This document shows positions 1,249 to 48,798 of a DNA stretch of 64,000 nucleotides, one piece after another. Source of the stretch: an uncultured bacterium (lineage in GTDB: Bacteria > Muiribacteriota > Ozemobacteria > Ozemobacterales > Ozemobacteraceae); contig CAZQUE010000001.1 in assembly GCA_964596185.1 (NCBI GenBank), positions 135,460 through 199,459 on the forward strand, given 5' to 3'. Positions within the stretch are counted from its first letter, which is position 1. Each line of letters starts with the position of its first letter. The position numbers were made by a program, and so were the translations under genes. The notes under the pieces are model-generated. The model was given only the letters and a program-made list of their open reading frames with translations, was not told the origin of the DNA and ran no database searches.

Positions 1249-1977
1249 TCAATTCAAAGCTATCATTGCCGCGATTCCAGTCAGCTGGATTGCGGCAAAA
1301 ATTCTTTCAGGCCAATTTTTTTCTGGGAAAATTGCCGCTATCAATGCCGCTGCACCGACGAAAATTGCCGGGGCAAATGCAAATCTGGGTGCCATGGCGA
1401 ATAAAAACAGGAAACTCAAGCCTGCCCAGGCCGGCAGAGTGGCAAATTTAGTCCGAAAAGTTGCCAGCGCGGCGATGGCAAATGCGATTAATGGCGCAAC
1501 TTTCACTGGTAAAGACAGAAACGGGCAGCCATGCAGCGGAAAATTGAAGAGGATGAAAATCATCGCCGGCCACACATAAGGCCCAGGCTCAAGAACTTCA
1601 CGGCGAATAAATATGACCGTGGCAACGAACCAGATCACGGCCTTGCTTGCCAAAGCGATAAAAGCCAGCGAGAGACCGGCCTGACGAAAGCTTGCGGCAA
1701 GGATTATGGCGATTGAAGCTTCTACCACAGGGTACTGCCAGGAAATCGGCGCCTGGCAGTAGCGGCATTTTCCCCTTAGCATTAGCCAGCTCAAAACCGG
1801 CAGCAAATCACCGGCATGAAGTCGATGATTGCATTTTGGGCATGCAGAGGGTGGAAAAATAACCGAGGTTCGGCTCGACATTCGCAGAATGACTACGTTA
1901 CAGAAACTGCCCAGGAGACTGCCAAAAACAAGGAAAAAGATGGTTAACAGATTTTGAAGTAACTCTTGCGCTGGCAT
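1249..1977 (-). CDS. pilD: Type IV prepilin peptidase (A24 family, PilD-like)
   Basis: ATG start at 1977. The N-terminal zinc-binding tetracysteine motif (CPKCNHRL...CRYCQAPIS) is followed by a multi-pass membrane domain, which is the typical PilD/A24 architecture. It sits next to the pilin gene. Confidence 0.75.
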   Translation of the reverse strand: MPAQELLQNLLTIFFLVFGSLLGSFCNVVILRMSSRTSVIFPPSACPKCNHRLHAGDLLPVLSWLMLRGKCRYCQAPISWQYPVVEASIAIILAASFRQAGLSLAFIALASKAVIWFVATVIFIRREVLEPGPYVWPAMIFILFNFPLHGCPFLSLPVKVAPLIAFAIAALATFRTKFATLPAWAGLSFLFLFAMAPRFAFAPAIFVGAAALIAAIFPEKNWPERIFAAIQLTGIAAMIALN

Positions 1978-2082: not shown

Positions 2083-2427
2083 TTAGCTGTCGTTGCTTTC
2101 AATGGTTCCATGGTTAGAACATTCGATGAGACCATTGTCATCAAGGCCGGTGCCTGAAATGACACAACTCTGCGCTGCTGGCGTAATGGGAGCCTTGAGA
2201 TACTTACCGCTGACGAGTTTACTCATAACGAGTGTGCTCATCATGTCGGTGTGATCCATGTTGTACATTTCAACTGCACCAAGGACAACTCTCATGTTTG
2301 CGTAGCAGGCTTTTTCACGGGCCTGTTCACGAGCCTTTCGGAAGTTAGGAATCGCGATGGCGGCCAGAATACCAATAATAGCGATAACGATCATAAGTTC
2401 AATCAACGTGAAGCCTCTGCGTTTCAT
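2083..2427 (-). CDS. pilA: Type IVa pilin (prepilin with class III signal peptide)
   Basis: MKRRG|FTLIELMIVIAIIGILAAIAIP: a short basic leader, then Gly-Phe(+1), Glu(+5) and a hydrophobic alpha1 helix. ATG start with an AAGGAG SD 8 nt upstream. Total length 114 aa. Confidence 0.85.
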   Translation of the reverse strand: MKRRGFTLIELMIVIAIIGILAAIAIPNFRKAREQAREKACYANMRVVLGAVEMYNMDHTDMMSTLVMSKLVSGKYLKAPITPAAQSCVISGTGLDDNGLIECSNHGTIESNDS

Positions 2428-2471
2428 AAAAACTCCTTTCTTGAAAAAATTACGGTACTACCGTCAACTTA

Positions 2472-2500
2472 ATACTAACTAGAATGATGGGTTTTGTCAA
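2472..2500 (-). promoter_or_regulatory. Candidate sigma70-type promoter for the pilin gene
   Basis: On the minus strand: TTGACA (2495-2500), a 17-nt spacer, then TAGTAT (2472-2477). This lies ~45 nt upstream of the pilin ATG. No sigma54 TGGCAC-N5-TTGC element is visible. Confidence 0.35.
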
Positions 2501-2609
2501 TCACCCCCGGTAGCCCGAAAAAGTTCGTTAATTGTTAGGGTTTTCTACATTATTGTCTGCAACCCTGTTTGACAATTTTTTTCCTTTTCTATATTCTTTA
2601 CCAATCCAA

Positions 2610-4832
2610 ATGGTCGAAAGGCTTTTCCCCTTGAAAAAAGTTCTGGGAGCAACTTTATTAATTCTTGCTCTGGTTTCCCTTACTTTTTTTTTCTCAGATT
2701 TTTTTTATGGCCATTATTCGGGCTCGGAGTACAGAACTTTAGACCCTGATTCGTTATTTTTTTTGCGAATATTTGAAAAAACCATGGCTCAAGGTAATGT
2801 CCCTGCCTATGATAGCTATGGATCATTTCCCGACAGATTCAATTTTCAATACCCGCCATTTCACATGTTCATTTTGCAAAAAACTGCAAACTTTTTGAGT
2901 TTGATCTGGCCTGGCCAAGACCCTCGCTACCTTGTGGGGTGGCTCCCTCCTTTTTTTGGATGGGTTTTGGCTATGATCCTGGTGAGCTTCGTCTGGGCAA
3001 AGACCCGCAATGCTGTTTTGACTTTACTGGTCAGCTTTGCCTGTGTTCCGGGCATTATCTCGACGATAATTTATCAGTTTCAAAGAATCGATTACCATTT
3101 TCTCAACAATTTTTTCATCTGGGTTTGGATCATTTTTGCGGCGTTATACTGTGATGGCAGAAAGCAGTGGCATTTGATCGCAGGTGTCGTTGCTGCGCTT
3201 CTGTTTCAAATGACCTGGGGTGGTACACCCTTGTTTTTTTTCATTGTAACCGTTTATTTTGTGGTTCTGCTTTTTTTCAGATCCGGAATCTTATCTGATT
3301 TTGGCTTCTATTGTTCTTCTTCAATGGTTGTTTCTTCTTTGACCATTTTGCTTTTCCTGGTCATTTCAGGAGTTAAAACATTCAATCTCGGGGGATTGAG
3401 TCTATTGCAGCCCCTGCTGATTCTTTCTGGCGGGATATTCGTGGTTATCGCACTATGGATGCCTTCATTATCCGGGAAAGGTAGATTTGCTCTGCTTGCT
3501 CCGATATTGATTTTTGCCGCATTGCTTTTTCCTTATTTTTTCGAGAAGGTAAAAGATGGTTTTACCTTTGTATCAAATTCTGATTTAAACCTTCAGTCTA
3601 TTAACGAGTTAAGGGCGGGAATCAATTTTTCTCAAATTCTGGTGTCATTTTCAGGAATTATTTCTGCTGTATCGAAGCTGAGACTAGTCTTTTTTCTGTT
3701 TCCATTTCTGATTTTCTTCAATCCATCCGGTCTTTTTGATGGCGGTGGCAAACTTTTGAAGGGCTTTAGCGCGATTTTTCTTCTTATGGGGTGTTTTTCC
3801 GAAAGATATTTTCGTTGGCTGGGCATTTTAATCGGATTTTGGAATGGCGTGGCCCTGTTTTTTCTTTTTTGCGTAATAAGTTCGACTGTAAAGGCGGATG
3901 ATTCAACGGTCTTCAGGAAAAATTTCAAATATTTGTTTTTTCTGCCATTTTTGCTTCTGCACTTTTTCTGGAGTTATCCAATGTTTTATAAACCCAGTTC
4001 TGCTTCTGGAGCTGCGCTGATGTCTGCGATGAATTGGATTCGCGACAATACGCCACCTACCAGCGGTTTCTTAGACAATAAGACTCCGGAATACGGTATT
4101 TACAACTACTGGCATTCAGGTAATGTCGTCAATTACTACGCTCAGCGCCCGACAATCGTAAACAATACCATGGTTGGGTATGGAAAAATGGCCGAAATTT
4201 TTTGCGCTGCAGATGAAGAATCTGCCTATTCGATTTGCGAGAAATATGGGATCAGATATTTTTATATCAACTCTTTTTATGATTTTTCTGATCGATTGGT
4301 CCGGTTTATGAGGGCATACTACCTTAGGCCGGGCGTGACCGGAACCGAATATCTATTCTTTCCTGATTATATTGATAATCCTGAAGATAGCTTTAAGTTC
4401 GACAAGACATTTCACTACTGGCTAAGAAATAAACTGGCAATTGAACCTTCCGGGATGTTCTCTGAAGCTGCTTCCAGACTAAGAATCGTATATTGTGATG
4501 AATATCATAGTGCCAACATGCTGCCCACCTATCTACTTTATGAACTGGTGCGCGGAGCAGTTGTTAAAGGGAATGCCGACGCGGGTTCAGAGGTGGAGGT
4601 TGCTTTGGACTGTCGTTTTGCTGATGTTGAAACCAGATACAGAAGAAAAGTCAAAGTTTCCGATCAGGGCGATTTTTCTATCCGACTTCCCTATGCAAAT
4701 TCATGGAAAAATGGCAATGTTGAAACAGGCAGTGCTTATCAAATCTCAGTCTTTATTGACGGAAAGATGAGTGAGCGCAGCTTTTCTCTTTCAGAAAATG
4801 ATGTGGCAGCTGGTAACGAGATAAAATTGTGA
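2610..4832 (+). CDS. Polytopic membrane protein, putative STT3/AglB/PglB-like oligosaccharyltransferase family (paralog A)
   Basis: There are 12-13 predicted TM helices followed by a soluble C-terminal domain. Motifs resemble the STT3 superfamily: DPDSLFFLR in loop 1 (DxD-like), SFPDRFNFQYPP (compare WFDDRAWYP), and YNYWHSGNVVNYYAQRPTIVNNTMVGYGKM, which aligns to [24 protein letters not shown]...VGKAM. I set the start at ATG 2610 by alignment with the N-terminus of paralog B; the six-frame track began at TTG 2532. Confidence 0.5.
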   Translation: MVERLFPLKKVLGATLLILALVSLTFFFSDFFYGHYSGSEYRTLDPDSLFFLRIFEKTMAQGNVPAYDSYGSFPDRFNFQYPPFHMFILQKTANFLSLIWPGQDPRYLVGWLPPFFGWVLAMILVSFVWAKTRNAVLTLLVSFACVPGIISTIIYQFQRIDYHFLNNFFIWVWIIFAALYCDGRKQWHLIAGVVAALLFQMTWGGTPLFFFIVTVYFVVLLFFRSGILSDFGFYCSSSMVVSSLTILLFLVISGVKTFNLGGLSLLQPLLILSGGIFVVIALWMPSLSGKGRFALLAPILIFAALLFPYFFEKVKDGFTFVSNSDLNLQSINELRAGINFSQILVSFSGIISAVSKLRLVFFLFPFLIFFNPSGLFDGGGKLLKGFSAIFLLMGCFSERYFRWLGILIGFWNGVALFFLFCVISSTVKADDSTVFRKNFKYLFFLPFLLLHFFWSYPMFYKPSSASGAALMSAMNWIRDNTPPTSGFLDNKTPEYGIYNYWHSGNVVNYYAQRPTIVNNTMVGYGKMAEIFCAADEESAYSICEKYGIRYFYINSFYDFSDRLVRFMRAYYLRPGVTGTEYLFFPDYIDNPEDSFKFDKTFHYWLRNKLAIEPSGMFSEAASRLRIVYCDEYHSANMLPTYLLYELVRGAVVKGNADAGSEVEVALDCRFADVETRYRRKVKVSDQGDFSIRLPYANSWKNGNVETGSAYQISVFIDGKMSERSFSLSENDVAAGNEIKL

Positions 4833-4849
4833 AAAAGAGGACTTGAACC

Positions 4850-7093
4850 TTGTTGCGATTGCTTCCAATAGACAAAAAGACCGGGATTTTTCTGGTTTCG
4901 TTGCTTTTGATTCTGGCTTGCTCCTTAACGATGTTCTATTCAGACTACCTTTTCCAAACTTCTGAAAGATCCCAGTATGTGACCAGAGATTCCGATTCGA
5001 TCTTTTTCATGCGTTTGTATGAAAAAGCAATCAATACAGGAAAAATCTCGCAAAAGGACTATTACGGCTCTTTTCCTGATGAACTGGAAATCAAATACCC
5101 ACCGTTTCATTTAAGATTTTTGCTTGAAATCAGCTATTTTCTGATGATGTTTTTGCCGGAAAAATGGTGGGGGATTGATTTTCTTATCGGTTGGATCCCG
5201 CCTTTCTTTGGTTGGATGATCGGCCTGCTGATGATTTTTTATACCTGGAAGAAAACCGGAAATAAAGGACTTACGTTAATGGTTGCCTTTGCCTGCATTC
5301 CCGGCAGAATCGCGGCGATGAGTTCGTTGTTTCTCAAGATAGATTATGATTTTCTGATAAATCTTTTTATCTGGGTCTGGGTTGTCGGTGCAGCAATGTA
5401 TTGTCCAGACAAAAGCCGCTTCTGGCAGTTTGCCGGAACAATTTCATTATTATTGTTTATTTTTACCTGGGGCGGGGTTCCACTATTTTTCTCGGTTGTT
5501 TTCATTTATTCTTTGTTTTTGCAGATTGTTAACCGACAGCTTGGCCAACAATTCGCCGAATATGCCAAATCAACATTTTTTCTCTCTTGCCTGGTGGCGT
5601 TGGTCTACGTTTTATACTCCGGAGAAAAGACCCTGAATATTGGTTATCTTGGTCTCTTCCAACCATTGTTTGGCCTGGCGGTTGCAGTTCTTCTGGTGGT
5701 TTTTGAAAAACTCTTCAGAAAAGAACCTGGAGCAGAGAGCAAAATTGCGCATTACCTTGCAATTGCCACTTTGCCATTGATTGCAATACTGGCAGCATTT
5801 TTCTTCCGTGACCAGCTTAGCAGTGGTTTTTCATTTCTGTTTAACAAAGATCCGCACATGCTCTCGGTGGGTGAACTGCAGCCAATAATCAGCTTTTCAG
5901 AATTGATCAAGGATAGAGATATTTTAATTTCTGCTCTTTATCGATTAAGTCTGATGTTTTTCTTCTTTCCATTGATTTTTTTGGCCAATCCAGGCCGTAT
6001 TTTTTCCGGAGAAGGCCGTTTCGTTCGGGACTTTGCCATTCTGTTTCTGCTCATGGGCTGCTATTCTGTCAGATATTTTCGTTGGGTTGGCCTGGTAATA
6101 GGGTTTTTGAACGGTTTGATCCTGTTCGAGCTGTTTTTAATTTTTTCCCGCCGTTTCTGCAATTCAGAAAGAAAATATGGCCGGCTGTTGCTGATCGTTC
6201 CTCTGATGGTTTTACATTTCGTTTTGAGCTATCCCGTATTTTCAAGAACTGCAGGGATTAAAAAAGCTAATTTGCAGGCTTTGACCTGGATAAATGAAAA
6301 TACTCCACCCACCAGCGGTTACTATGACGAGAAAAGGCCTGAATATTCGATTTTCGCGGTCTGGAGCTACGGGAACCAGATAAATTATTATGCAAGAAGG
6401 CCGACGATTGTAAACAATACCATGGCCGGTTTTGGAAAAATGTCCAGATTGATTACTGCTGAAGATGAAACTCAGGCCTATGAATTATGCAAAAAATACG
6501 GAGTCAGATACTTTTTTATCGATGCCAAATATAGATTGACAGATGAATTGGTTAAATTCATGCAGGTCTATGCGAAAAAAGTAGATGAAAAAGATGTCGT
6601 TTACCGTTTTATCGATGATTCTCAAGAAAGCACGACCCGTTCCAATGGTTTAAAGGAGTCTTTTTATTATTGGTTGGGCAGCAAGCTGGCAATGGAAAAA
6701 AGCTTCAATTTTCCTCAGGCCGCATCGAGATTGCGAATCGTTTATTGCTATGAATACTATTCCGAAAAAATTCCTCCGGAGCATTTGATTTTTCAGCTTG
6801 TTGAAGGCGCAAAGCTCACTGGTAAAGCTGATGCAGGAACCAAGGTCCGTATCGAATTGGATTGTCAGTTTTTCGCGATCAAGAGAAAATTTGTTCAGGA
6901 AACTATTGTGGGTGAAGATGGAAGATTTGAGGCTACTGTTCCTTACTCAAATGGATATAAAAATGGATTTGTGTTTACCGGGCCGAACTATCTGATAACC
7001 AGAATGGTTGAGGGTAATACCGAGAGCAAAGAAGTTCAGGTTTCTGAAAAAGCGGTTATTGATGGTGACCGTATATTGCTGTCGGAACTTTGA
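4850..7093 (+). CDS. Polytopic membrane protein, putative STT3-like oligosaccharyltransferase family (paralog B)
   Basis: This is a tandem paralog of the previous gene, roughly 35-40% identical by eye. Shared blocks include YGSFPD..YPPFH, GW(L/I)PPFFGW, NTPPTSG, YYA(Q/R)RPTIVNNTM.G.GKM and AASRLRIVYC.EY. The WWDYG-equivalent reads AVWSYGN. TTG start at 4850 with an AAGAGGA SD, 17 nt after the stop of paralog A. Confidence 0.5.
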   Translation: MLRLLPIDKKTGIFLVSLLLILACSLTMFYSDYLFQTSERSQYVTRDSDSIFFMRLYEKAINTGKISQKDYYGSFPDELEIKYPPFHLRFLLEISYFLMMFLPEKWWGIDFLIGWIPPFFGWMIGLLMIFYTWKKTGNKGLTLMVAFACIPGRIAAMSSLFLKIDYDFLINLFIWVWVVGAAMYCPDKSRFWQFAGTISLLLFIFTWGGVPLFFSVVFIYSLFLQIVNRQLGQQFAEYAKSTFFLSCLVALVYVLYSGEKTLNIGYLGLFQPLFGLAVAVLLVVFEKLFRKEPGAESKIAHYLAIATLPLIAILAAFFFRDQLSSGFSFLFNKDPHMLSVGELQPIISFSELIKDRDILISALYRLSLMFFFFPLIFLANPGRIFSGEGRFVRDFAILFLLMGCYSVRYFRWVGLVIGFLNGLILFELFLIFSRRFCNSERKYGRLLLIVPLMVLHFVLSYPVFSRTAGIKKANLQALTWINENTPPTSGYYDEKRPEYSIFAVWSYGNQINYYARRPTIVNNTMAGFGKMSRLITAEDETQAYELCKKYGVRYFFIDAKYRLTDELVKFMQVYAKKVDEKDVVYRFIDDSQESTTRSNGLKESFYYWLGSKLAMEKSFNFPQAASRLRIVYCYEYYSEKIPPEHLIFQLVEGAKLTGKADAGTKVRIELDCQFFAIKRKFVQETIVGEDGRFEATVPYSNGYKNGFVFTGPNYLITRMVEGNTESKEVQVSEKAVIDGDRILLSEL

Positions 7094-7106
7094 ATAATTG
7101 ATTGAT

Positions 7107-9779
7107 TCAGGGCGTCGCTTGAAGATATTTGGTGTAATATTCAAAATCCATAATCAGAAAGCGCTGCAGATATTCCATCGTCAGCATGATCGAGGCATTT
7201 TTGTTAACTCGATCAATGTCATAGTTCTTTAGCGGTTCAAAAATGGGCTTTCGGCCATCGAGCTTCATGCTCATGACCTTCATGCTGTTGAGATCTTTGT
7301 AATACCAATAATAGTTATCGTTTTCCTGCAGGGCGAGATGATTGAAAGAGGCAAGAAAAATCTTGCGCGGTGCAGGATTTGCGGTTAGCAGATCCATGCC
7401 TTGAATCACTACCGGAACTTTGCTTTTGACCCCACAAAGATTCAGTGCAGTGGGCAAAATATCAATATGTGAGCCTGGAGTTGGGTTTATTTTTAAGCCG
7501 GTGCTGTTTGGTCTGATAATAATAAGAGGAACATTCGTCAGATGTGGGTCGCAGTTCCAGCCGTGCCCAAATTGGCCATTTTCGCCAAGGCTGGTGACGT
7601 GGTCGGAAGTAATCATTATATAAGTGTTTTCGCTAAGCCTGTTTGCATCAAGGGCCTCAACAATTCTGAAAATCTGTGAGTCGAGATAGCTGATGCAGTC
7701 TTTGAATCTGCCGACGGCATCATTGGGTGATTTGCCGAAAACGGTTGGGTGGTCGGAGATCTGATTGAATGGAGCATGAGGAAAAGCGGCCCGGTAATAG
7801 ATGAAGAAAGGTTGATCAGAACTGCTTTTCTCTTTAAGAAAATCTGAAATTCGATCGACGACGAAATGTTCCTTTACGCCCCATATCCAGCCATCATCCT
7901 TGGTCATGCCGGGCATGGTGGTCGCATCATACATTCTGTCAGCGCCTCGTGGGCGATAAAAATTGGCAATTCCTGTATTGCCGGTATAGATCGAGAAAAA
8001 GAGCGAGCAATCAAAACCGGATGCTTTCAAAACTTCGATTAAAGTATTACAAATAAAAACCGGTTTGCTTCTGAAAATATGGAATGTTGATGGGATGATC
8101 CCGGAAAAAATTGAAAATTCTGCATTTGAAGATTCGGCAAAAGATGAAAAATAAAATGGAAAAATCTCGATTCGATCTTTTAATGATTCGAGCTTCGGGG
8201 TAGTTGCATCCTCATTGCCGAAAAGCTGCAAATATCTGGTTCCGGTTGATTCGAGGGTAATCAGAATCAGATTGGCAGGTTTTTGCACATTTTGTTGTCG
8301 TTGCGATTCAACAAACTTTTTCGTTGTTTCCTCGATATTGAAGCCTGCCTGATCAAGTCTTTTCTTGAGAGCTTCAGGGGTTGGGCGTTTTGAAAAATAG
8401 TTTTTGAAATAAGGAACCGAGCCGATGAGGTTGTTGACCGGGTCTGACATGCCGGCAACCGGCGAGTTCAACATGCGCGAGCCGATGTTTGAAATAGCCG
8501 AAAAGCCAAGAATGATAATCAGAAAAAGTTTGGTTCTGCTGGTCGATTTGGCAATGATTCGACCGGATACGAAGCTGGCACTTAACCAGAGAACCGTTGG
8601 CACAATGATAAGGCCGACCAATGTTCCGATACTGACTACTTTGACGGCAGTATTCAAAAACATGCTTAAAGTGCTGAGACTCAAGACCCAATCAATTGCA
8701 TGAAAGTCTACACTCTGGCCCATGTTGAAGAACACAAAACCGTCGACGACATAGAAAATAAAAAGCAGGAACGCCAGCGAATAGAAAATCGCCTTTTCTG
8801 CTTTCTTGCTGAAAAGGCCGAAAAATACTGCAATGATACTGATGATGGTCAGATGAGAAATGGCCATGAAGGCATAACCGAATGAGAAAAGCAAAAGCCA
8901 GAAGTTGAAAACGCAGATCCCCATTGGAATTCGGTTAACTGAAAAGCTGAAAACAATGCTGAAAAAAAGCAGAAAAAACCATGAATGATTTGGTGAACCG
9001 CTTTCATGATGAGATTCGGCAAATTTGATCATTCGAAAACCCAGAAGCCAACATAAAAAGAACAATACTAAAACTGAGATCAGCGATGAACTGTAGATAA
9101 TAGCAAAGTTCAACAGGTAAGCAACTGATGAAACGAAGGTTAGCCCGAAAAAGTAATGCAGGTATCGTGGTGATCGACCTTTGGCGCAGTTAGTCGAGAT
9201 CAGGGTTGTGAACAAAACCGCAAAAGCAAAAATCAATTGGTAATTACTTAAATAATAGGTGAATTGAAAAAAAGGCAGGATACATAACAGATCGATAATC
9301 CGCTCATATCCAGCTTTTCGGGTGATGTAAAAAACCAGGCCATAAAACAGCAGACTCCAGACAATGAACGGCGACTGAAAAAACATGTCCATTATCAAAA
9401 CTGCACTTAAATCTTCATAAGTGGCCTGTGCTTCAAAAATTCTAAAAAGAGCCGGCTTACTGCCGCCCAGCTTGAGATTTGTCAGGGCAAAAATTATAAA
9501 TGCCGCAGGGTAAACCAGGGCGCTCTTGAATTGAAAATCTTTGGGAAAGCGCTTTATCGAGCGAAAGTAGGCGATAAATAAAACTACATATACAGCAATG
9601 TACAGCCAGATGCCGAACTCGGGAAAAGAAAGATCCGGCCTGACCAGTTCGCCAAGGTTTTTGGGAACGTTTAAGAAGATGGCGAAAACACGTGCGGCAA
9701 GAATAAGAACAAATGCCGTATAAACTGGGGCCTTTAGACGCTCTGCGGCACTTTTCCAGAAAAGGATGAAAGAATTCAT
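7107..9779 (-). CDS. Membrane-anchored sulfatase / alkaline-phosphatase-superfamily transferase (LtaS/EptA/PptA-like)
   Basis: A ~520-aa multi-TM N-terminal region is followed by a C-terminal sulfatase-type domain (ITLESTGTRYLQLFG..., ITSDHVTSLGENGQFGHGWN). I moved the start to ATG 9779 (MNSFILFW). The longer track ORF would overlap pilT by ~100 nt. Confidence 0.7.
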   Translation of the reverse strand: MNSFILFWKSAAERLKAPVYTAFVLILAARVFAIFLNVPKNLGELVRPDLSFPEFGIWLYIAVYVVLFIAYFRSIKRFPKDFQFKSALVYPAAFIIFALTNLKLGGSKPALFRIFEAQATYEDLSAVLIMDMFFQSPFIVWSLLFYGLVFYITRKAGYERIIDLLCILPFFQFTYYLSNYQLIFAFAVLFTTLISTNCAKGRSPRYLHYFFGLTFVSSVAYLLNFAIIYSSSLISVLVLFFLCWLLGFRMIKFAESHHESGSPNHSWFFLLFFSIVFSFSVNRIPMGICVFNFWLLLFSFGYAFMAISHLTIISIIAVFFGLFSKKAEKAIFYSLAFLLFIFYVVDGFVFFNMGQSVDFHAIDWVLSLSTLSMFLNTAVKVVSIGTLVGLIIVPTVLWLSASFVSGRIIAKSTSRTKLFLIIILGFSAISNIGSRMLNSPVAGMSDPVNNLIGSVPYFKNYFSKRPTPEALKKRLDQAGFNIEETTKKFVESQRQQNVQKPANLILITLESTGTRYLQLFGNEDATTPKLESLKDRIEIFPFYFSSFAESSNAEFSIFSGIIPSTFHIFRSKPVFICNTLIEVLKASGFDCSLFFSIYTGNTGIANFYRPRGADRMYDATTMPGMTKDDGWIWGVKEHFVVDRISDFLKEKSSSDQPFFIYYRAAFPHAPFNQISDHPTVFGKSPNDAVGRFKDCISYLDSQIFRIVEALDANRLSENTYIMITSDHVTSLGENGQFGHGWNCDPHLTNVPLIIIRPNSTGLKINPTPGSHIDILPTALNLCGVKSKVPVVIQGMDLLTANPAPRKIFLASFNHLALQENDNYYWYYKDLNSMKVMSMKLDGRKPIFEPLKNYDIDRVNKNASIMLTMEYLQRFLIMDFEYYTKYLQATP

Positions 9780-9790
9780 TTCGATGCGCC

Positions 9791-10852
9791 TTAAGCGCTC
9801 TTGAGCATTCTTTCGAGTTCCTTCGGATGCATGGTGTGTGACATTGCTTCTTCGAGAGTGATGTCGCCACGCAAATATAGGTCGCGCAGGCACATTTCGA
9901 AGGTCATCATGCCCTCGTCATGGCTGGTCTGCATGACCGTGTACAGTCCGGAAATCTTCTGTTCGCGAATACAGTTGGCGACGGCCGGGTTTCCGATGAG
10001 AATTTCGTTACAGACGACTCGGCCTTTGCCGCTGGCCATCGGAATGAGCTGCTGGGCAACGACTGCTCTGAGAACGAATGAAAGCTGTGAGCGGATCTGG
10101 CTTTGCTGGTGCGGCGGGAAAATATCGATGATACGGTTGATTGTCTGGGCAGCATCGGTAGTATGCAGAGTGCCGAAAACAAGGTGGCCGGTTTCCGCCA
10201 TGGTACAGGCAGCTGAAACAGTCTCGAGGTCGCGCATTTCGCCGACGAGGATAACGTCTGGATCTTCGCGAAGCACGCGTCTGAGAGCTTCACCGAAAGA
10301 GTTGGTGTCGATATGCAGTTCACGCTGGTTGACCACAGATTTTTTGTGGTAATGCAGGTATTCGATCGGATCTTCGATGGTCATGATGTGATTTCGTCTG
10401 GTTTCGTTGACGATATTGATCAGGCAGGCCAGAGAAGTTGATTTACCAGAACCGGTCGGACCGGTAAAGAGAACCAGCCCTTTGCGCAATTTGGTGAAGT
10501 CACGGAGTTTTTCGGGCAGTCGAAGCTCTTCGAGCGAAGGAATGCGGGTTGGAATAATTCGAAATGCTGCGCCGATACAGCCTCTTTGTTTATAAACGTT
10601 AACGCGGAATCGGCCAAAGCCATGAACTGAATAAGACAGGTCAAGCTCTTTGCATTCTTCGAATTCTTTCTGCTGTTCAGCAGTCAGCATGTTGTAGATC
10701 AACGATCTTGTATCCATAGGAGTGAGAACATCAAGATCGGTTTGAATCAATTCTCCATCAACGCGGATAACCGGAGGGGTTCCCACGGTAATATGAAGAT
10801 CTGATGCACCGTTTTCAATTACCAGGTTTAGCAGATCGTTAAGAACAAACAT
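9791..10852 (-). CDS. pilT: Twitching-motility ATPase PilT
   Basis: The N-terminus MFVLNDLLNLVIENGASDLHI..., Walker A GPTGSGKST and the 353-aa length are PilT hallmarks. Confidence 0.9.
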   Translation of the reverse strand: MFVLNDLLNLVIENGASDLHITVGTPPVIRVDGELIQTDLDVLTPMDTRSLIYNMLTAEQQKEFEECKELDLSYSVHGFGRFRVNVYKQRGCIGAAFRIIPTRIPSLEELRLPEKLRDFTKLRKGLVLFTGPTGSGKSTSLACLINIVNETRRNHIMTIEDPIEYLHYHKKSVVNQRELHIDTNSFGEALRRVLREDPDVILVGEMRDLETVSAACTMAETGHLVFGTLHTTDAAQTINRIIDIFPPHQQSQIRSQLSFVLRAVVAQQLIPMASGKGRVVCNEILIGNPAVANCIREQKISGLYTVMQTSHDEGMMTFEMCLRDLYLRGDITLEEAMSHTMHPKELERMLKSA

Positions 10853-10885
10853 TTTCCCGCACTCCTTATTTTTTTATGTGTATGA

Positions 10886-12718
10886 TTAGTGCTCGCCCAT
10901 GGTGACGCGGACAACTTCTTCAAGAGAGGTCATACCGGTGAGGGCTTTTCTCAGAGCTGATTCGCGCAGTGACAACATGCCTTCTTCAATGGCCTGTCTT
11001 CTGATGTCATCGGTTGAGCCGCCGTTGAGAATGATATCTCTAAGGCGTTCGGACATCAACATAACTTCGTAAACGCCGACGCGGCCTTTTGATCCTGAGT
11101 TGTTGCAGGTTTCGCAGCCTTTGCCCTTGTAGAACATCATATTCTTTTCATTGATGTGGGGCAGGTCGAGACGTCTGAGTAATTCTGGGGTGATGCCGAA
11201 CTGGCTGATTTGCTCAGCTCTTGGTTTGATTTCAAATTTGCAGTCTTTACAGATTTTTCTGACCAGACGTTGTGCCTGAACGATAACGACCGAGGTCGTA
11301 ACCATGAAAGGTTCGATACCCATGTTAACGATACGGCCGATGGTGCCGGGCGCATCGTTGGTATGCAGGGTTGAAAGCACAAGGTGGCCGGTCATCGACG
11401 CTTTGATCGCGATTTCTGCGGTTTCAAAGTCACGAATCTCACCGACCATGATTACATCCGGATCCTGGCGCAGGAAGGAGCGCAGGGCCGCGGCGAAAGT
11501 CAGGCCGATTTCAGGTTTACACTGCACCTGGTTAACCCCATGCAGCATGTATTCAACCGGATCTTCAGCGGTCATGACGTTGGTGTCGACGGCGTTGAGA
11601 GATGTCAGCGCCGAATAAAGCGTTGTGGTTTTACCTGATCCGGTTGGACCGGTAACGAGAATGATGCCGTATGGCGAGGCAATACCGCCCTTGAAGCGTT
11701 CAAGCGTTTTTGGTTCGAACCCGAGATCTTCAAGGTTAACCTTGAGCGAGCTCTGGTCGAGAATTCGCATAACGATTTTTTCGCCCCAGATAACCGGCAG
11801 AACCGATACGCGCAAGTCGATCATGCGGTTGGCCACTTTGATCTTGATACGTCCATCCTGTGGCAGACGCTTTTCAGCGATATTGAGTGACGACATGATT
11901 TTGATACGCGAAGTGATAGCGGCGGTAGCCTTTTTGGGCGGGCTCATGGCGGTGAACATCATGCCGTCCTGGCGATAACGCACGCGCAATTCTTTTTCGA
12001 ACGGTTCGATATGAATGTCGGAAACCCCGTTTTGAACAGCCTGAGAAATAACCAGGTTGCAAAGGCGGATGATCGGCGCATCGTTTTCGCCGAGTTCGCC
12101 GAGCTGGTCGAGATCTTCGTCGTCGGTGTGTCCGATGTCTTCAAGGTCGTCCATCAGTTTGTCCTGCTGGGCAACGGCACCATAGGCGTCCTGTAGTGCT
12201 TTACTGATGTCAGTATGGGTCGCGACGACCGGTTTGACCATCAAACCGCTCATCAGCTGAATGTCGTCGATGGCAATGATGTTAAGTGGGTCGACCATGG
12301 CCACGGTAAGCTTGTTTCCGACCTTGTTGATCGGAATGAGCATGTGACGCTTGGCGATATGTTCGGGTACCAGTTTCGCAATAACCGGATCAATCAGGTA
12401 GTTTGACAGGTCAATGAACGGTATACGAAGCTGCTTTGACAGGATCTGAACGATATCCTGTTCGGTGACAAGATGCATTTCAACCAGCACCGCGCCAAGT
12501 CGTTTGCCGCTCTTTTTCTGTAGCGCCAGAGCCTGTTGCAGTTGCTCTTCGTTGATCAGACCTTCATGAATAAGTGCATCCCCAAGACGCATTTTCTTGG
12601 GAATAGTAGACGAAGAAGCTCCTGGCTTGGGTGGCCCCGGTGGCGCAGCGGCCGGGCCTGGGGGCATTGCGCCGCCATCCGGTCCCTGGCCGGGCTGTGC
12701 AGGAATAGATTGATTCAT
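10886..12718 (-). CDS. pilB: Type IV pilus assembly ATPase PilB (GspE family)
   Basis: An Ala/Pro-rich N-terminus is followed by a GSPII_E N-domain, Walker A GPTGSGKTTT and a C-terminal CxxC...CxxC zinc finger. There is a strong AAGGAAGG SD. Confidence 0.9.
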   Translation of the reverse strand: MNQSIPAQPGQGPDGGAMPPGPAAAPPGPPKPGASSSTIPKKMRLGDALIHEGLINEEQLQQALALQKKSGKRLGAVLVEMHLVTEQDIVQILSKQLRIPFIDLSNYLIDPVIAKLVPEHIAKRHMLIPINKVGNKLTVAMVDPLNIIAIDDIQLMSGLMVKPVVATHTDISKALQDAYGAVAQQDKLMDDLEDIGHTDDEDLDQLGELGENDAPIIRLCNLVISQAVQNGVSDIHIEPFEKELRVRYRQDGMMFTAMSPPKKATAAITSRIKIMSSLNIAEKRLPQDGRIKIKVANRMIDLRVSVLPVIWGEKIVMRILDQSSLKVNLEDLGFEPKTLERFKGGIASPYGIILVTGPTGSGKTTTLYSALTSLNAVDTNVMTAEDPVEYMLHGVNQVQCKPEIGLTFAAALRSFLRQDPDVIMVGEIRDFETAEIAIKASMTGHLVLSTLHTNDAPGTIGRIVNMGIEPFMVTTSVVIVQAQRLVRKICKDCKFEIKPRAEQISQFGITPELLRRLDLPHINEKNMMFYKGKGCETCNNSGSKGRVGVYEVMLMSERLRDIILNGGSTDDIRRQAIEEGMLSLRESALRKALTGMTSLEEVVRVTMGEH

Positions 12719-12803
12719 TACTGCAGTTCCTTCCTTATTTCTTTACAGAAACAATTCCATTAGACTGTCATGATATATCAAGTTTCACTGAATTTCCAGT
12801 AAA

Positions 12804-14128: not shown

Positions 14129-15139
14129 TTAGAACTGTTTTGATGCAGAGATTCTATGCGCGTCTCCCAGAGTTTCGTCGGCGTAGGAATAATCAAAACG
14201 CCAGGTATCGAGCTTGAAGCTGGCACCAAGAGTCAGGTCGCCGTCGTGGGCACCGAGTCTCAGAGCGGCATAGTCCTGTACCCAGTATTCTGCGCCGGCA
14301 TAAAGCTTGGCATCCATGTCTTCAACCTTGTTGATGTCGGCGGCGATTGTAAGCTTGTCATTGGGCTTATGGGCAACACCAACCTGAAGGGTGGTGGGAA
14401 CGCTATCAGAATGTCCTGAAGCTGTATCCCATTCGAGAGATTCACCAATGTCGCGAACAGACAGACCCAGAGTCGTCTTTTCGTTGGCTTCATAGAGGAA
14501 GCCGAGATCGAGGCCGAAACTGTCTGCCGAGTTGGTAAACAGATCCTGGCTCAGATATTTGAGGTTGATACCACCATACCAGCGATCAGCCAGTTTTTTG
14601 GCGTATGAACCGAAAGTTGCTTTTTCAGAATCATCGAAGTAGCTGAAAATGTAAACTGATTTACCGGGAGAATAAGTCCCGTCAGGATTGGTAGCCGGAA
14701 GATCCGTTCCTGCTGGAATCGCTGTTCCATCAAGAGTTGCAGGGGTGTTGCCTGTGCCATAAGTAGTGGCAAGCCGTGTTTCAGGAATACCATCAACGCC
14801 GAATCTGATGTGAGACAGGGCGACAACGCCATTGTCTTTGCCATCTTTGCCTTTAAGCGGATGCGCGTAGTTGAAGAAGTTGTATTCGCGATCCATGCTC
14901 AGGTCGGCGTGCATGAAAGAGCCTTCAGCCTTTTTCAGTTTGGCGAGTCCGGCCGGATTCCAAAACGCGGCGGTAGAGTCGTCGGCCAGTGCAGTGAATG
15001 CACTGCCCATGCCCAGAGCCCGGGCACCGACACCCATTTTCAGATATGCTCCCGCCTGGCCTGCGGATTCAGCAAAGGCAGTGCTCATGGTGCCTACGCT
15101 AAGAGCCACGAGGAAGAGAGTCTTTAAAACCTTTTTCAT
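14129..15139 (-). CDS. FadL/PorV-family outer-membrane beta-barrel protein
   Basis: Signal peptide MKKVLKTLFLVALSVGTMSTAFA. The FadL-type N-terminal hatch motif is present (GVGARALGMGSAFTALADDSTAAFWNPAGLAKL). The body has alternating-hydrophobic beta-strand character and ends in C-terminal ...ASKQF. I trimmed the start to ATG 15139. Confidence 0.55.
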   Translation of the reverse strand: MKKVLKTLFLVALSVGTMSTAFAESAGQAGAYLKMGVGARALGMGSAFTALADDSTAAFWNPAGLAKLKKAEGSFMHADLSMDREYNFFNYAHPLKGKDGKDNGVVALSHIRFGVDGIPETRLATTYGTGNTPATLDGTAIPAGTDLPATNPDGTYSPGKSVYIFSYFDDSEKATFGSYAKKLADRWYGGINLKYLSQDLFTNSADSFGLDLGFLYEANEKTTLGLSVRDIGESLEWDTASGHSDSVPTTLQVGVAHKPNDKLTIAADINKVEDMDAKLYAGAEYWVQDYAALRLGAHDGDLTLGASFKLDTWRFDYSYADETLGDAHRISASKQF

Positions 15140-15244
15140 ATTGTTTCCCCTTACGAGTCGATAGAACTGGTTATCTATCATTTCGGCAGCTGACTTGATT
15201 TTCTGAACGATAATTTAACTATTTTTGAAAAAAAGTTTTTTCAA

Positions 15245-15966: not shown

Positions 15967-18900
15967 TCAGCGCAACACGGCGATTTTGTGCGTGTATTTA
16001 GCTTTTTTGCTCCAGTTGTCGGGATCTCTGACCGTAATCCTGGCGAAGTAAACGCCATTGGCAACCTGTTTGCCACCCGTTGAGCGCAGATCCCAGAGCA
16101 CATCCTGAACCTGCAGCAAACCGTTGGTTCCGGTTCTGATACTGAGGTTGTTCGAATCAGCGACCTTGTGGCCGGCGACATCGTAGATTTTAACTTCGAT
16201 TTCGCCCCAGTCGACATCAGGTCGATTGGTGCTGATGCGCAGATTTACCCGGGTTCTTGCCGGATTCGGGTATTGATTCACTTCGTAAATGACCAGCGGT
16301 GGCAGAACCTGGAAGCGCAGTGCCGGAGTGACAAGCTGATTGCCTGCTTTGTCGGCCAGCCGCAGCGACATTTCATATTCTCCACCGATCAGATCTTCGG
16401 TCGGAATGAAGCGTGCCATCTTGCCGCTTTCGTCAAACATAACCGGATAGGCTCGGTTGTTCATGATTACCTGACCTTTGGCTAAATCGATTCCTGAACC
16501 CAGTTCGTCAATATTCCAGACGAATGATGGTCGCGGTTCGCGAATCGGTTTATCGGCTTCAATCTTGGTAAGCATGTTGGCGCGTGGTGCAAGAACGTCT
16601 TTCATTATTGCAAAGGTGCCGGGTTCGTTGGCGAAGAATTCGATCTCGCCATCTTTCAGACTGTAGGCGACAGGCTTCCAGCCAAGGCTGAGATCGCTGC
16701 GATACAGGCCGGTGCCGGCTTCGAGCTGCTCGGTGCTGAGCTTGAAGTTGGCTTTGATGTTGCCGGCAATTCTTCCGGCCGCAATGTTGATGCTGTATGC
16801 AGTGCCAACCGGAATCAATTCTTCGGCGCTCTGGCCATCGGTTGCCGCGCTGGCTCTTATCGAACTGACCTGAGCTCTGGTAAGCTCGGCCATTACCGAA
16901 GGAACGATCATGGCAGCTCTGGTTTCGCTGGTGGGCACTTTGCTCAACTGCTCAGGCACGATGGCGACCAGGCTGTTTTCTTTGAGGGTTCCCGGTTCGA
17001 ACAATGCGGTGAAGTTGCGGTCTGGCGACTGCAGCGAGGCTCGCATCGAGGCATTGACGAAGGCCGTTGAGAAGCTCATGTTCGCGGTTCCGGTATTCGT
17101 AGAGATGTCGGTGGCGGTGACCTTGATCGTTGCCACGCCTGGGTAATTCATGTCGAGATGAGCGCCGCCGATGAAGATGCGATTGGTCGGGCCGGCATTG
17201 AGAACCAGCGATACGGCGGTTCCACCACTCTGGGTGATGACAGCTGTCGGAGCTCCTGACAAATCTTCATTTGAGCTGACGGCGATGCTGAAATCGAATT
17301 CATTGGCCGGGTTGCTGAATGCTGTGATGGTCAATACCGGCGGTGTGATGTCCTGACCCTGGAAGGTAACCCGGGCCAGTGAACTGTCGCTCGGGTTGCC
17401 GAAGAGATCTTCCACTCCAGAGGCGACGATAGTGTAGTTTCTGGTTTCAACGATGTCGTCATAAGCCGTGATCGTTACCGATTTCAGATCCGCACGCAGG
17501 CTTACCGACTCGATCGCAATTGTGTCGGTGCCGCTGGTGAGGTTGTAGTTGCCAACCTGCTGTGCGGTAATGTTCTCGATCTGTTCATCGAAGACGATAT
17601 TGAATTTTTTCTGAGAATTCAGACCGTCATAAGTGATCGCTGTAATGATCGGGCCAAGAGTGTCGGCGGTAAACAGTCCGGTGTTGTTGCCGGAAGTGAT
17701 CGGATCATCGTCGATACTTCTGAAACCCGGGTTAACAGTCAGGGTGTAGTTGGTGTTGTGAGTAAGTGGGTAGGTGAGCGGTATTTCGACGGTGTTGTCG
17801 TTTACGGTTATCGGGGTTACTGCACCGATGCCGACCGGAGTGGCCGGAGACAGGCTGTAATTGCTGGGTATTCCAGCATCAGCAGGATTGACCGCGTGGC
17901 TGAAAGTGACCCTGATATGGTCTTTGTCGATCTGCGCAACACTGGTAACCTTGAATACGGAGTTCACAACGGTGATGTCTTTGGTAACATCGGTGGATTC
18001 GTTTCCGGCCAGATCGGTTACCGACAGTTTGTATGTGCCGTCGACGACTGGCTGTCTGTTTGAATCCTTGCCATCCCATTCAACTTTGAACGGAGTCGCG
18101 GTTTCTTCAAGCAGCAGCTCGCGAACCAGCGAGGAGCCGGTGGTAATTCTTACCAGTGCGGTTCCAGAACTGACGCTGGCGTCGTTACTGCCAACTTCTA
18201 TTCGCAAAGGTGTGACGTTTGGATTGAAGCGGTTCACTTCATTGCCGTTGTCGACACGATATGTTCTGATATCGATTATAGATGGGGCTGTGCGGTCCAT
18301 GACCAGGGTTCCGGTAGCTATGCTGCCGACACCAAGAGGATCGCCGATATTGCCGGCATAATCGACGATGTTAACCATGTATTCGCCGTCGACAAGTGTG
18401 CCTTGCGGAGAGTTGGTGTCTTTGCCGTCGAAGCTGATGGTATAGCCGCCGCCACTCAGACCGGTCATCGGATAAGTGTCGGTCGAGAGGCCTGGGTTAA
18501 CCAGTCGCATTTTCAAGGCATCGCCTGAAGCAGGTCCGAAGGCATCGATCTTGGCAAAAGAACTGACCAGCGGGCTGAAATAGGCTTTGTTGTTGTAGGT
18601 TCGCACGTTACTGAACCGCCATGAAGTTACAACCGGAGCTTTGCCATCATATACGATGCTGCCGCGTTTGCTGGCTTCATTGCCGGCGTCGTCATAAACC
18701 CTGAGAACATAGGTTGTCGGTCCGGATTCGCCTACCAGGGTGCCACCAATGGTGCCATCCCAGTTGGCAGTGCCGGTAAGACCGCTGACTGTTATTGGCA
18801 GTGATTCTCGCAGAGCGTCGCCCTGGAAAATTTGCAGCCAGAGACTGGTTGCCAACGGCGCAGTCTGGAAGTTGATTGTAACTGTCGCGATTCCAGGGGC

Positions 18901-48300: not shown

Positions 48301-48798
48301 TTCGCCCGGTTCACTGACTTCTGCTTTGCCGTCTTCACCACCGACAGAAAAGCCTTCCCAGGAGTAAAGCTGGCGGATTGCCAGTTCTATCTGATTTTTG
48401 GGGGCGATCAATACTTCAAGTTTGCATTGAGTAAGAAAGGCGATCATATCGGTGGCCATGATGTCGAAAGGATCGGCCATGGCAACGGTGAGGCGGTTTC
48501 CTTCCTTTTTCATCGGAACCATTTTGTATTGTTTGGCCTGATATTCAGGGATAAGCGAAAGAATCTTGGCGTCGACCTTGATGTTGGTCAGATCGATGAC
48601 CGATACCCCAAGAAATTCAGCCCAGAGGTCGAGAATTTGCTTCTCAGACATGAAACCAAGTCTGACAATGATATTTTCAAGGCGTTCGAGCGTCTGGGCC
48701 TGGATGTTTTTCGCCTTTTCAAGCTGATCTTCAGACAACAGACCCTTTTGCAGCATCAGGCTTTCAACTGTTTGTTTGGTTCCTTGAATGTTGTTCAT
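45310..48798 (-). CDS. GspE/PilB-family secretion ATPase with long C-terminal repeat-containing extension (1162 aa)
   Basis: The N-terminal ~570 aa have a GSPII_E N-domain, Walker A GPTGAGKTTT, and a CPSCK...CKECNQ zinc finger. A ~590-aa extension follows, containing three ~85-aa repeats (FKPWQFNE.../FKQWQFIEE.../FKAWQFNEQ...). GGAGGA SD. Confidence 0.8.
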   Translation of the reverse strand: MNNIQGTKQTVESLMLQKGLLSEDQLEKAKNIQAQTLERLENIIVRLGFMSEKQILDLWAEFLGVSVIDLTNIKVDAKILSLIPEYQAKQYKMVPMKKEGNRLTVAMADPFDIMATDMIAFLTQCKLEVLIAPKNQIELAIRQLYSWEGFSVGGEDGKAEVSEPGEAGVEVVRKTSEQGAVVQFLNAIFKQAILKRASDIHVEPREDILLVRFRVDGILHDAMTGPKSLLAPLISRIKILSHLDIAERRLPQDGRLKVRMQDKEIDFRVSTVPSLLGEKAVLRLLQREAKYDLDNLGFFDDDLSRLKAALDEPYGLILVTGPTGAGKTTTLFGMLKYFNSTEINIFTIENPVEYRINGITQVQINDKIGLDFASGLRSALRQDPDIILVGEVRDLETAEIAFRASLTGHKVLSTLHTNNAPASINRLINMGVPAYLVTAAVRAVVAQKLLHRICPSCKTEYKPSHSIIQRLNLSPGKLIGNKFYHGAGCKECNQTGTFGRIGVYETMVMTASLKDIIMEGGTEMAIKRIARLEGMRTLREMAIERAIVGESTLEEVVYVTPSDEEEKRISLPGVFTGNPSMVVPVAMPQSAAMGSTMPQSEPIRAQRSAPVIDPNDPVIKTIIASLEKEYLFFSDEKLAERMHLPVLQIRELLQMQGLTRTSEGFKNFFGAAPEEMSETDIVDIIHLIQEKGGYLPDFIFANDEIAATWSAIAVKALLEKIKNRLQKPEELPEIFNEKLLVNAGLEQVWLWSGQSRFKLIEMVLPGQFKPWQFNEIENWLENNDKNYCAREALEWLMSEKLGCSRGDLPAMLNRHIFKDNGLGKLLELFDDSCFKLVNAVFPNVFKQWQFIEEEPLIWFQEDRFDTAQKATIWLIEERLGIPIEEIPKRISIREFHMNGLSKLLDLFNQNLYQVIENAYPQKFKAWQFNEQSDLWKAPDALETARQATTWLIHDRLHIDEAKAAQHISRRHFLNNGLGFMLGTLFNHSHFLALENAIEELKTNEIFQKALFNYSQEIRDINVKWEALAEKIALNHFGKARFKVTLPNLKVAPIVPENERIYINAANQIEYVPQIVIPKLNAYSDFSDFSHWVPYCDRLTYWVLGDDRSTGYVEPTHPKVKLVFVDALTGGLRSKGLLDVVEKVQQLVNTHNRLLDHKAPAGI

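Follow-up and report, generated by a model that had tools for sequence, protein, structure and literature searches.

N-glycosylation by STT3-type oligosaccharyltransferases (OSTs) is, within Bacteria, essentially a matter of the Campylobacterota and some Desulfobacterota, and bacterial pilins are to our knowledge glycosylated only by unrelated O-oligosaccharyltransferases (O-OTases) or by TfpW. In Archaea, the Agl pathways of Haloferax and Methanococcus comprise AglJ and AglD, which are family 2 glycosyltransferases (GT2s) resembling dolichyl-phosphate-mannose synthase (DPMS), further GT2s, the methyltransferase AglP and the OST AglB. Archaeal AglBs glycosylate pilins and archaellins, the methanococcal enzyme using a dolichyl phosphate (Dol-P) carrier, and the +2 Ser/Thr of the acceptor sequon fits into a pocket made up of the WWDYG motif and the DK or MI motif, the latter defined as MxxIxxx[IVW] (PMC5131992). 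A few bacterial STT3 homologues are nested in a euryarchaeal clade, implying transfer from Archaea (PMC4973528). Here, we analysed a 64 kb stretch of contig CAZQUE010000001.1 of an uncultured bacterium of the Ozemobacteraceae, hereafter called the window, in which two adjacent genes, A and B, encode AglB/STT3-like GT-C glycosyltransferases. We consider it moderately probable that A and B are intact, selectively maintained AglB-family enzymes which glycosylate a type IV filament or other exported proteins following a non-canonical acceptor rule.

A and B are a true tandem pair, as an earlier, sequence-only reading of the window had stated; the two open reading frames (ORFs) lie on the forward strand with a gap of 17 nt, and the encoded proteins are 41% identical over their full length. 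For gene A (2610..4832, +; 740 aa), ATG 2610 is the likely start and the one in the JGI call, the frame being open further 5′ to a TTG at 2532. A promoter-like TTGACA-17-TATTCT precedes gene A at 2569-2597; the promoter scan revealed no excess over shuffled expectation, and the element counts as a weak hint for ATG 2610 alone. Gene B (4850..7093, +; 747 aa) starts with TTG 4850, 8 nt after the Shine-Dalgarno sequence AAGAGGA at 4835-4841. In the JGI annotation, B (P0001, 694 aa) begins 53 codons further 3′, which leaves out window positions 4850-5008 and would delete the first transmembrane (TM) segment and the catalytic Asp of the first loop; the orthologue P0002 of B was called at full length.

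That both proteins belong to the STT3/AglB family is practically certain. Pfam AglB_core-like (PF22627) and AglB_L1 (PF18079) both scored above their gathering thresholds in A and in B. The closest curated family was NCBIfam TIGR04154 (archaeosortase A system-associated OST), matching residues ~16-600, including the membrane domain, with E-values of 5e-31 for A and 1e-45 for B. A sequence search of the PDB matched only the C-terminal domains, with A. fulgidus AglB-S1/S2 (E ~1e-10 to 1e-17) and, weakly, STT3; as this search with A misses the TM domains, homology in that part was shown via TIGR04154, hhalign and a fold search. In hhalign, a profile of 44 family representatives was aligned to a profile of 20 more distant AglB-type homologues with a probability of 100% and an E-value of 8.6e-87 over 706 columns. 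All seven of those 20 homologues that were scanned against Pfam carry STT3, AglB_core and AglB_L1, and two have the NCBI name 'oligosaccharyl transferase, archaeosortase A system-associated' (Halobacteriota, Methanocella). The sequence blocks on which the sequence-only reading had relied, YGSFPD..YPPFH and YYA(Q/R)RPTIVNNTM.G.GKM, are present in both proteins and align to conserved segments of archaeal AglB and eukaryotic STT3.

AlphaFold2 modelled A with a predicted local distance difference test score of 91.6 and a predicted template modelling score of 0.90 (44-sequence alignment), and B with scores of 72.6 and 0.69 (12 sequences); Foldseek matched the model of B to AfAglB (7e9s) at E 6e-23. 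The Kyte-Doolittle count of TM segments being too crude for an exact helix number, fold alignment was used instead. In the models, an N-terminal polytopic TM domain is followed by a C-terminal external globular domain of the predicted STT3 fold, the domain order being TM domain, AglB core and AglB_L1 beta domain. Two of the checks suggested in the sequence-only reading, profile comparison and structure prediction, thus spoke for STT3/AglB/PglB superfamily homologues. A GT-C family other than STT3, such as YfhO, PMT (GT39) or ArnT (GT83), would account for Pfam STT3 (PF02516) matching neither A nor B at E ≤ 1, and the core fold is common to all GT-C families; yet none of the three was the best match among profile hidden Markov models or folds, the finding that the sequence-only reading had named as fatal to it, and the Pfam, hhalign and fold-search results together refute this explanation, leaving it a negligible probability. 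PglB ranked behind AglB, STT3 and DPY19 as a match, so that of the likeness originally claimed the AglB part stood and the PglB part did not. As far as sequence comparison goes, the lineage is AglB-like rather than PglB-like, because its nearest outgroup is formed by the euryarchaeal archaeosortase A-associated OSTs.

Motif positions were taken from alignments within the family and to AglBs, and their coordinates, all on the forward strand, were checked on the window sequence. In the first loop, A has DPD (2742..2750, +), in which D47 is the catalytic Asp of the xxD motif, invariant in the 44 representatives and aligned to the invariant Asp of AglBs; B has DSD (4988..4996, +), with D49 as its equivalent by alignment. 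These triplets lie within DPDSLFF (aa 45-51 of A) and DSDSIFF (aa 47-53 of B), which the sequence-only reading had taken for a DxD motif; the catalytic Asp is indeed located there, but only the second Asp of each triplet aligns to it, and the true DxD/DxH is found in external loop 2 (IDYH in A, IDYD in B). This second acidic motif is D161-Y-H163 in A (3090..3098, +), of the DxH type like 'DHH' of AglB, and D165-Y-D167 in B (5342..5350, +), of the DxD type and aligned to the same 'DHH'. A loop-1 block D-x-Y-x-x-F/Y-P contains a further invariant Asp (D68 in A, D70 in B). The loop-5 motif of TIXE/SVSE type reads S-I-N-E333 in A (3597..3608, +), where E333 is invariant and aligns to 'sIsE' of AglB, and S-V-G-E342 in B (5864..5875, +) by alignment. 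R399 of A (3804..3806, +) is invariant and aligns to the conserved Arg of Q-x-R-F in AglBs, and R408 of B (6071..6073, +) is the corresponding invariant Arg; both presumably contact the donor phosphate, as we take it from the published PglB and AglB structures.

Over the 44 representatives, in the numbering of A, D47, D68, D161, E333 and R399 are invariant and W501, G504 and N505 nearly so. We take these motifs to be the counterparts of D56/D154/D156/E319/R375 in PglB and D47/D161/H163/E360/R426 in AfAglB. With first-loop Asp, DxD/DxH, loop-5 Glu and conserved Arg all present in both proteins, A and B are very likely to be catalytically active.

The acceptor side of the enzymes is altered. At the WWDYG position, A reads YWHSG (4107..4121, +), with His for Asp, as in the sister strain (locus L001), and B reads VWSYG (6359..6373, +), with Ser for Asp, as in L001 and P0002. 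Of the proposed arrangement in which YYA..GKM directly follows a WWDYG position, the conserved stretch was thus recovered and the pentapeptide was not. The central (second) Trp and the Gly-Asn of the block are retained in A and B, and cluster-embedded relatives read [FY]WDxGN, a partial WWDYG match. A carries M-A-E-I (4188..4199, +), MI-like (MxxI), at or adjoining the DK/MI position, its Met being invariant in the family, and B carries the likewise MI-like M-S-R-L (6440..6451, +) at the aligned position. In both, the Met is followed by I/L at +3, but +7 is not I/V/W, and the register is one residue off DK in the alignments; DxxK, the DK motif, was not found in A or B. Otherwise, the acceptor-side core (invariant W, G-N, R-P, N-N and M) is conserved with AglB.

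With the WWDYG Asp, which binds the +2 Ser/Thr, gone from both copies, canonical N-X-S/T N-OST activity is not to be assumed; the change to His in A and to Ser in B leads us to expect an acceptor rule other than N-X-Ser/Thr, and one that differs between A and B. The two could nonetheless be general PglB-like N-OSTs acting at N-X-S/T on a range of periplasmic or surface proteins, for which the pilus neighbourhood would be incidental and in which His and Ser stand in for the Asp. The complete catalytic motif set and the retained Trp and Gly-Asn are in keeping with this, and His and Ser would still be able to hydrogen-bond. However, in the cluster-embedded single-copy orthologues with examined context the Asp is kept, whereas it was replaced independently, by H, S, G or N, in several secondary copies, a pattern suggestive of changed specificity. 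A further paralogue type outside the pilus cluster is strongly degenerate at the WWDYG position, reading YRNDSN or YRNESN (L007:9905-12112, L029, L039 and P0021), and adjoins different genes, including another GT2.

The genomic context of the orthologues was analysed by clustering the ORFs of all loci, annotating them with Pfam and mapping them by tblastn onto metagenome loci. The STT3-like orthologue with [FY]WDxGN is located in a conserved supercluster of ~20 kb (L002-L016, L018, L020 and L028-L047; for example L006:770-21238). Upstream and divergent from it are genes for a GspG-like prepilin, a PilM-PilN fusion, PilO, two unknown proteins, a secretin and a HEAT-repeat protein, the N-terminus of the prepilin being almost invariant across loci (GFTLMEIMVVIIVIAVLASVAGPMIGSITDQGR). 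Downstream and convergent follow, often after a sulfatase-domain membrane protein, DUF2304, a GT2 of ~245 aa, a GT2 of ~340 aa, a B12/radical S-adenosylmethionine (SAM) enzyme, a SAM methyltransferase, PilC (T2SSF), PilB (T2SSE), a tetratricopeptide repeat (TPR) protein, an unknown protein and a SpoIIE-type phosphatase. Of the 16 genome loci, 13-14 show this arrangement, as do L018, L020 and nearly all of the 23 metagenome loci with enough flank. The ~245-aa GT2 beside DUF2304 had Pyrococcus Dol-P-Man synthase, ArnC and GtrB as its best PDB matches. Judged by this gene content, the STT3-like gene is a constant component of a type IV filament cluster encoding a seemingly polyprenyl-phosphate-based glycan pathway, and a link between the function of the family and the filament is likely. 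Such synteny with type IV filament genes at ~30 loci is too consistent to be incidental, as it would have to be for general N-X-S/T glycosylation. In one metagenome locus (L030:3-1073), the GspG-like pilin gene upstream of the STT3-like gene is duplicated in tandem.

In the window, the order of genes is PilD-like, ComGC-like pilin, A, B, LtaS-like, PilT, PilB. The pilin gene (2083..2427, −; 114 aa), divergent from A, encodes a ComGC-like type IV prepilin with N_methyl (E 1.5e-10) and ComGC_C Pfam matches; it is the sole prepilin ORF which a six-frame regular-expression scan detected in the window, and a hairpin terminator lies next to it at 2041-2062. Convergent with B, an LtaS-like polytopic membrane protein of 890 aa (7107..9779, −) carries an extracellular domain of sulfatase/alkaline-phosphatase type (Pfam Sulfatase, E 1.9e-40), its best NCBIfam and PDB matches being LtaS/LtaP. 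The PilT-type retraction ATPase (9791..10852, −; T2SSE Pfam match) and the PilB/GspE-type assembly ATPase (10886..12718, −; MshEN and T2SSE matches) follow. In L001 and L021, the LtaS-like gene was inherited together with the A/B pair, and in L019, P0003 is followed by a homologue; in L004, L005, L008, L014, L020, L034, L035, L037 and L045-47, the gene after the STT3-like one encodes another sulfatase-domain protein. It is probable that the LtaS-like protein is a phospho-substituent transferase belonging to the same module as A and B. On the far side of the pilin, the PilD-like membrane protein (1249..1977, −) matched in Pfam only the A24 N-terminal domain of prepilin peptidases; no Peptidase_A24 catalytic domain was found at E ≤ 1 and no GxGD-type motif by eye. 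This domain is the methyltransferase/zinc part, and the protein may be a degenerate or specialised PilD paralogue.

Comparison with the sister strain L001 revealed dN/dS values of 0.089 for A and 0.082 for B at dS ~1.4, of 0.062 at dS 0.99 for the LtaS-like gene, and of 0.006 at dS ~0.38 for PilT and PilB. At the protein level, A is 80%, B 82% and the LtaS-like protein 88% identical to the sister strain, with values of 94% for the TPR protein, 93% for the PilD-like protein, 96% for the pilin, 99.7% for PilT and 99.8% for PilB. The block of A, B and the LtaS-like gene (window 2318-9790) shares 71-88% of its nucleotides with the sister strain at dS 1.0-1.5, and the genes on either side (including 9791-12760; L025) share 91-98% at dS ~0.38. 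Its G+C content is 0.40-0.43, compared to ~0.47-0.53 over most of the remaining window. The block recalls a variable surface-glycosylation island, or may reflect recombination.

One or both copies might be non-catalytic or decaying, either as pseudo-enzymes or as structural partners of the other copy; the degenerate WWDYG, the redundant paralogues of the genome with four copies in the sister metagenome-assembled genome (MAG), and the faster divergence of the A-B-LtaS block than of its flanks would fit such decay. Yet both ORFs are intact, and with dN/dS ~0.08 at dS ~1.4 and a divergence spread evenly over the domains, A and B are, by codon comparison, both under purifying selection. All metal- and donor-binding residues are invariant, and the truly degenerate paralogue type (YRNDSN, L007) looks different. 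The pseudogene or decay explanation, which we regard as very improbable, was rejected on account of dN/dS and the invariant catalytic residues. The differences between the YWHSG of A and the VWSYG of B are kept in the sister-strain orthologues (L001, L021 and P0002), making it plausible that A and B have two different specificities.

A search of an index of 5.8 billion proteins yielded only 11 relatives, and an exhaustive profile search of 1.84 billion representatives yielded ~50 clusters at E<1e-100, followed by a drop to AglB-type proteins, with 2,446 matches at E<1e-3 overall. The GTDB-species genome collection contributed 16 loci and a metagenome scan 23 more. The named genome loci all come from MAGs labelled Candidatus Riflebacteria, Rifleibacteriota, Rifleibacterium or Ozemobacter(aceae), plus two labelled Candidatus Avigastranaerophilus; these labels lend no support to the likeness to the Fibrobacterota-Chlorobiota-Bacteroidota (FCB) group seen in the sequence-only reading. 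The family represents a small lineage of Bacteria that is almost confined to genomes of the Candidatus Riflebacteria type; NCBI names its members 'hypothetical protein' and JGI 'Stt3'. The two MAGs labelled Candidatus Avigastranaerophilus (Melainabacteria; L008 and L014) show the same cluster and gene order, with a mature-pilin N-terminus identical to that of the Riflebacteria loci, which suggests mis-binning or mislabelling, or a recent transfer of the whole cluster.

Since the closest relatives outside the lineage are euryarchaeal AglBs, the lineage was probably acquired from Archaea, and its archaeal outgroup agrees with published trees (PMC4973528). In a crude neighbour-joining tree, A and B fall into one subclade with the L002 tandem pair, P0003, P0004, P0005, P0014 and P0015, sister to the Ozemobacter-type single-copy genes. 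The sister MAG has four copies, in L001 and L002, the L002 pair being its second pair and lying within the main pilus cluster, where P0014 (the partner in L002) keeps the cluster position; besides L002, tandem pairs occur in L018 and L026. The window pair is a derived, twice-duplicated copy at a second pilus locus. A literature search of limited coverage, which is no proof of absence, revealed no account of Riflebacteria OSTs, of bacterial AglB-like enzymes in pilus clusters or of N-glycosylated bacterial pilins, and no description of N-type OST homologues from bacteria of this kind seems to exist so far.

Concerning the acceptor, gene adjacency points to pilins. The window pilin has one N-X-S/T sequon, at its extreme C-terminus (ESNDS), and its terminal Ser is conserved in the sister strain. 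That this adjacent pilin is the acceptor of A and/or B is possible, if doubtful, and for a linkage to Asn the chances are evenly balanced. General glycosylation at N-X-S/T would find abundant sites, 40 and 60 sequons, in two giant surface proteins with bacterial Ig-like domains 9 kb off, and the location of the paralogues P0003 and P0004 outside pilus clusters would suit it as well; but the giant proteins are not enriched in sequons (z 0.5-0.7) and were rejected as acceptors, and, considering also the synteny and the fate of the WWDYG Asp, we judge this explanation unlikely. A somewhat less likely one still is that A and B are STT3-fold enzymes acting away from sequon Asn, transferring one sugar or a short glycan, donated by a polyprenyl monophosphate, to some other acceptor atom or molecule; candidates would be Ser/Thr (among them the conserved Ser at the C-terminus of the adjacent pilin), Trp, which DPY19 modifies, a glycan or a lipid. 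We know of no characterised member of the STT3/AglB/PglB family that is not an Asn-directed OST, and the remaining acceptor-side core is, as described, shared with AglB. Euryarchaeal AglBs use monophosphate carriers too, so that the donor type does not discriminate (PMC5131992).

The favoured interpretation, glycosylation of a type IV filament or other exported proteins by A and B, would operate as follows. A divalent metal would be bound in the polytopic N-terminal domain by the first-loop Asp, the DxD/DxH and the loop-5 Glu, and the invariant Arg would bind the phosphate of a polyprenyl-phosphate-linked sugar or oligosaccharide, as the conserved residues suggest. At the periplasmic side of the membrane, the C-terminal domain would hold an exported acceptor, to which the glycan is then transferred. 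Ancestrally, the enzyme would belong to a type IV filament cluster encoding the donor pathway as well, which consists of a DPMS/GtrB/ArnC-like GT2 with DUF2304, a second GT2, radical-SAM/B12 enzyme, methyltransferase and often an LtaS-like transferase; from this arrangement, the likeliest job of the family would be the glycosylation of the pilins, other components or cargo of the filament. The window pair would be a derived duplicate set beside a second pilus locus (ComGC-like pilin, PilT and PilB) and an LtaS-like enzyme, which might add a phospho-substituent to the glycan or protein in analogy to EptC and PptA.

Several observations weigh against this interpretation, in addition to the missing PF02516 match. 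With TIGR04154 scores of 107.9 bits for A and 156.2 bits for B, far under the cut-off of 450 bits, neither protein is a member of that family, and the fold evidence consists of predicted structures. Neither protein conforms to WWD(Y/X)G, a motif needed for catalysis, second Trp and Gly being kept and Asp replaced, and the loss of this Asp could mean reduced or absent protein-OST activity. No glycan-assembly genes adjoin the window pair, so that the donor must come from elsewhere in the genome; pgl-like genes were likewise not found in the fetched flanks of the window pair or of related loci. The closest relatives of A, P0004 and P0003, are located away from pilus genes. In the pilin of the sister strain (L025), which is 95.6% identical, the sequon position reads ESKES and is thus not conserved; only 12 of 23 cluster-type pilins have a sequon in the semi-conserved loop, within 14 residues before the conserved [RK]WKGPY, commonly 'ITNY[ST]', and seven of the 23, at full length, have none at all. 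No window protein is enriched in sequons beyond its composition. Sequence support for a pilin acceptor is hence weak, and acceptor and linkage type are inferred.

A more far-reaching scenario, which we regard as rather speculative in its entirety, is that a euryarchaeal AglB entered the Riflebacteria along with a Dol-P-style glycan pathway and was integrated into a type IV filament machine, that it expanded to four copies in the lineage of the window, and that the window pair, having lost the Ser/Thr-reading Asp of WWDYG, evolved a new acceptor rule, with a specificity of its own for each copy and an LtaS-like partner adding a phospho-substituent. The new rule would be either sequon-independent Asn glycosylation or modification of another residue, for instance the C-terminal Ser of the pilin. 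If true, the filament would be the first pilus in Bacteria with glycans added by an STT3-type enzyme.

Elsewhere in the window, the giant Ig-like-domain proteins are encoded at 15967-25749 (−; 3,260 aa) and 26696-40579 (−; 4,627 aa), adjoined by a FadL/PorV-like outer-membrane protein with sub-threshold matches (14129-15181, −). One of the giant proteins has a weak match to Por_Secre_tail of the type IX secretion system (T9SS), and the impression of an FCB-like genome may come from these weak T9SS- and PorV-like matches along the window. A second PilB/GspE-type ATPase (45310-48798, −) has MshEN and T2SSE in its first ~560 aa and a C-terminal extension of ~600 aa without a Pfam match. Within a CheA/CheW/CheB/CheR cluster, a hydrogenase-like sensory fusion (54760-57564, −) combines a 4Fe-4S ferredoxin, the C-terminal domain of the Fe-only hydrogenase large subunit, HAMP and the signalling domain of methyl-accepting chemotaxis proteins.

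If an AglB-derived family is fixed in a type IV filament cluster of another phylum, the taxonomic and functional range of bacterial N-OSTs would be wider, and a module for surface glycosylation would provide a clear example of transfer from Archaea to Bacteria. The natural His, Ser and Gly variants at the WWDYG Asp would be tools for studying how STT3 enzymes read their acceptor, a question relevant to glycoconjugate engineering.

Among known systems, archaeal AglB (A. fulgidus AglB-L, 3waj and 7e9s; AglB-S1/S2, 3vgp and 3vu0; TIGR04154 OSTs) provides the best sequence, profile and fold matches. Domain order, xxD, DxD/DxH, TIXE-type Glu and Arg are shared, and with ~740 aa the proteins resemble short-to-medium AglBs. 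Unlike archaeal AglB, they occur in a bacterial host, the family motif is [FY]WDxGN with the Asp gone in A and B, DK is absent with MxxI-like residues only, and the family gene is embedded in a bacterial type IV pilus/type II secretion system-like cluster with a secretin. Of the Dol-P-based euryarchaeal Agl pathways, the cluster orthologues are reminiscent by composition, having a DPMS-like GT2, another GT2 and a SAM methyltransferase as neighbours, whereas the Riflebacteria clusters add radical-SAM/B12, DUF2304 and LtaS-like genes and the bacterial carrier would be of undecaprenyl type. With Campylobacter PglB (3rce and 5ogl), A and B have in common that they are single-subunit bacterial STT3 homologues, presumably with a periplasmic site of action and a polyprenyl-linked donor, and the MI-type rather than DK-type motif of PglB is partly resembled by their MI-like residues; in contrast to PglB, they have no pgl-type cluster (PglC/A/J/H/I/K), have lost the WWDYG Asp, and the associated GT2 is of the polyprenyl-monophosphate sugar synthase type.

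As with TfpO/PilO, PglL, PglS (Wzy_C) and TfpW, a glycosyltransferase is encoded right next to the major pilin and near pilB, and as in pilin glycosylation islands the A-B-LtaS block diverges faster than its flanks; A and B are, however, of a family unrelated to TfpO/PilO, PglL and PglS, with no Wzy_C/O-antigen ligase domain by Pfam, so that the analogy is functional only. The C-mannosyltransferase DPY19 (7zlg), third-best among the fold matches, is similar in combining an STT3-like GT-C fold with the lack of a canonical WWDYG for reading the sequon and in using a polyprenyl-monophosphate sugar, but it is without the AglB core and L1 C-terminal domains of A and B, which are far closer to AglB in sequence. 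Measured against these systems, the enzyme class is already known, and what appears to be new is the lineage itself, the fixed link between it and a bacterial type IV filament machine, the expansion of paralogues and the altered WWDYG pocket.

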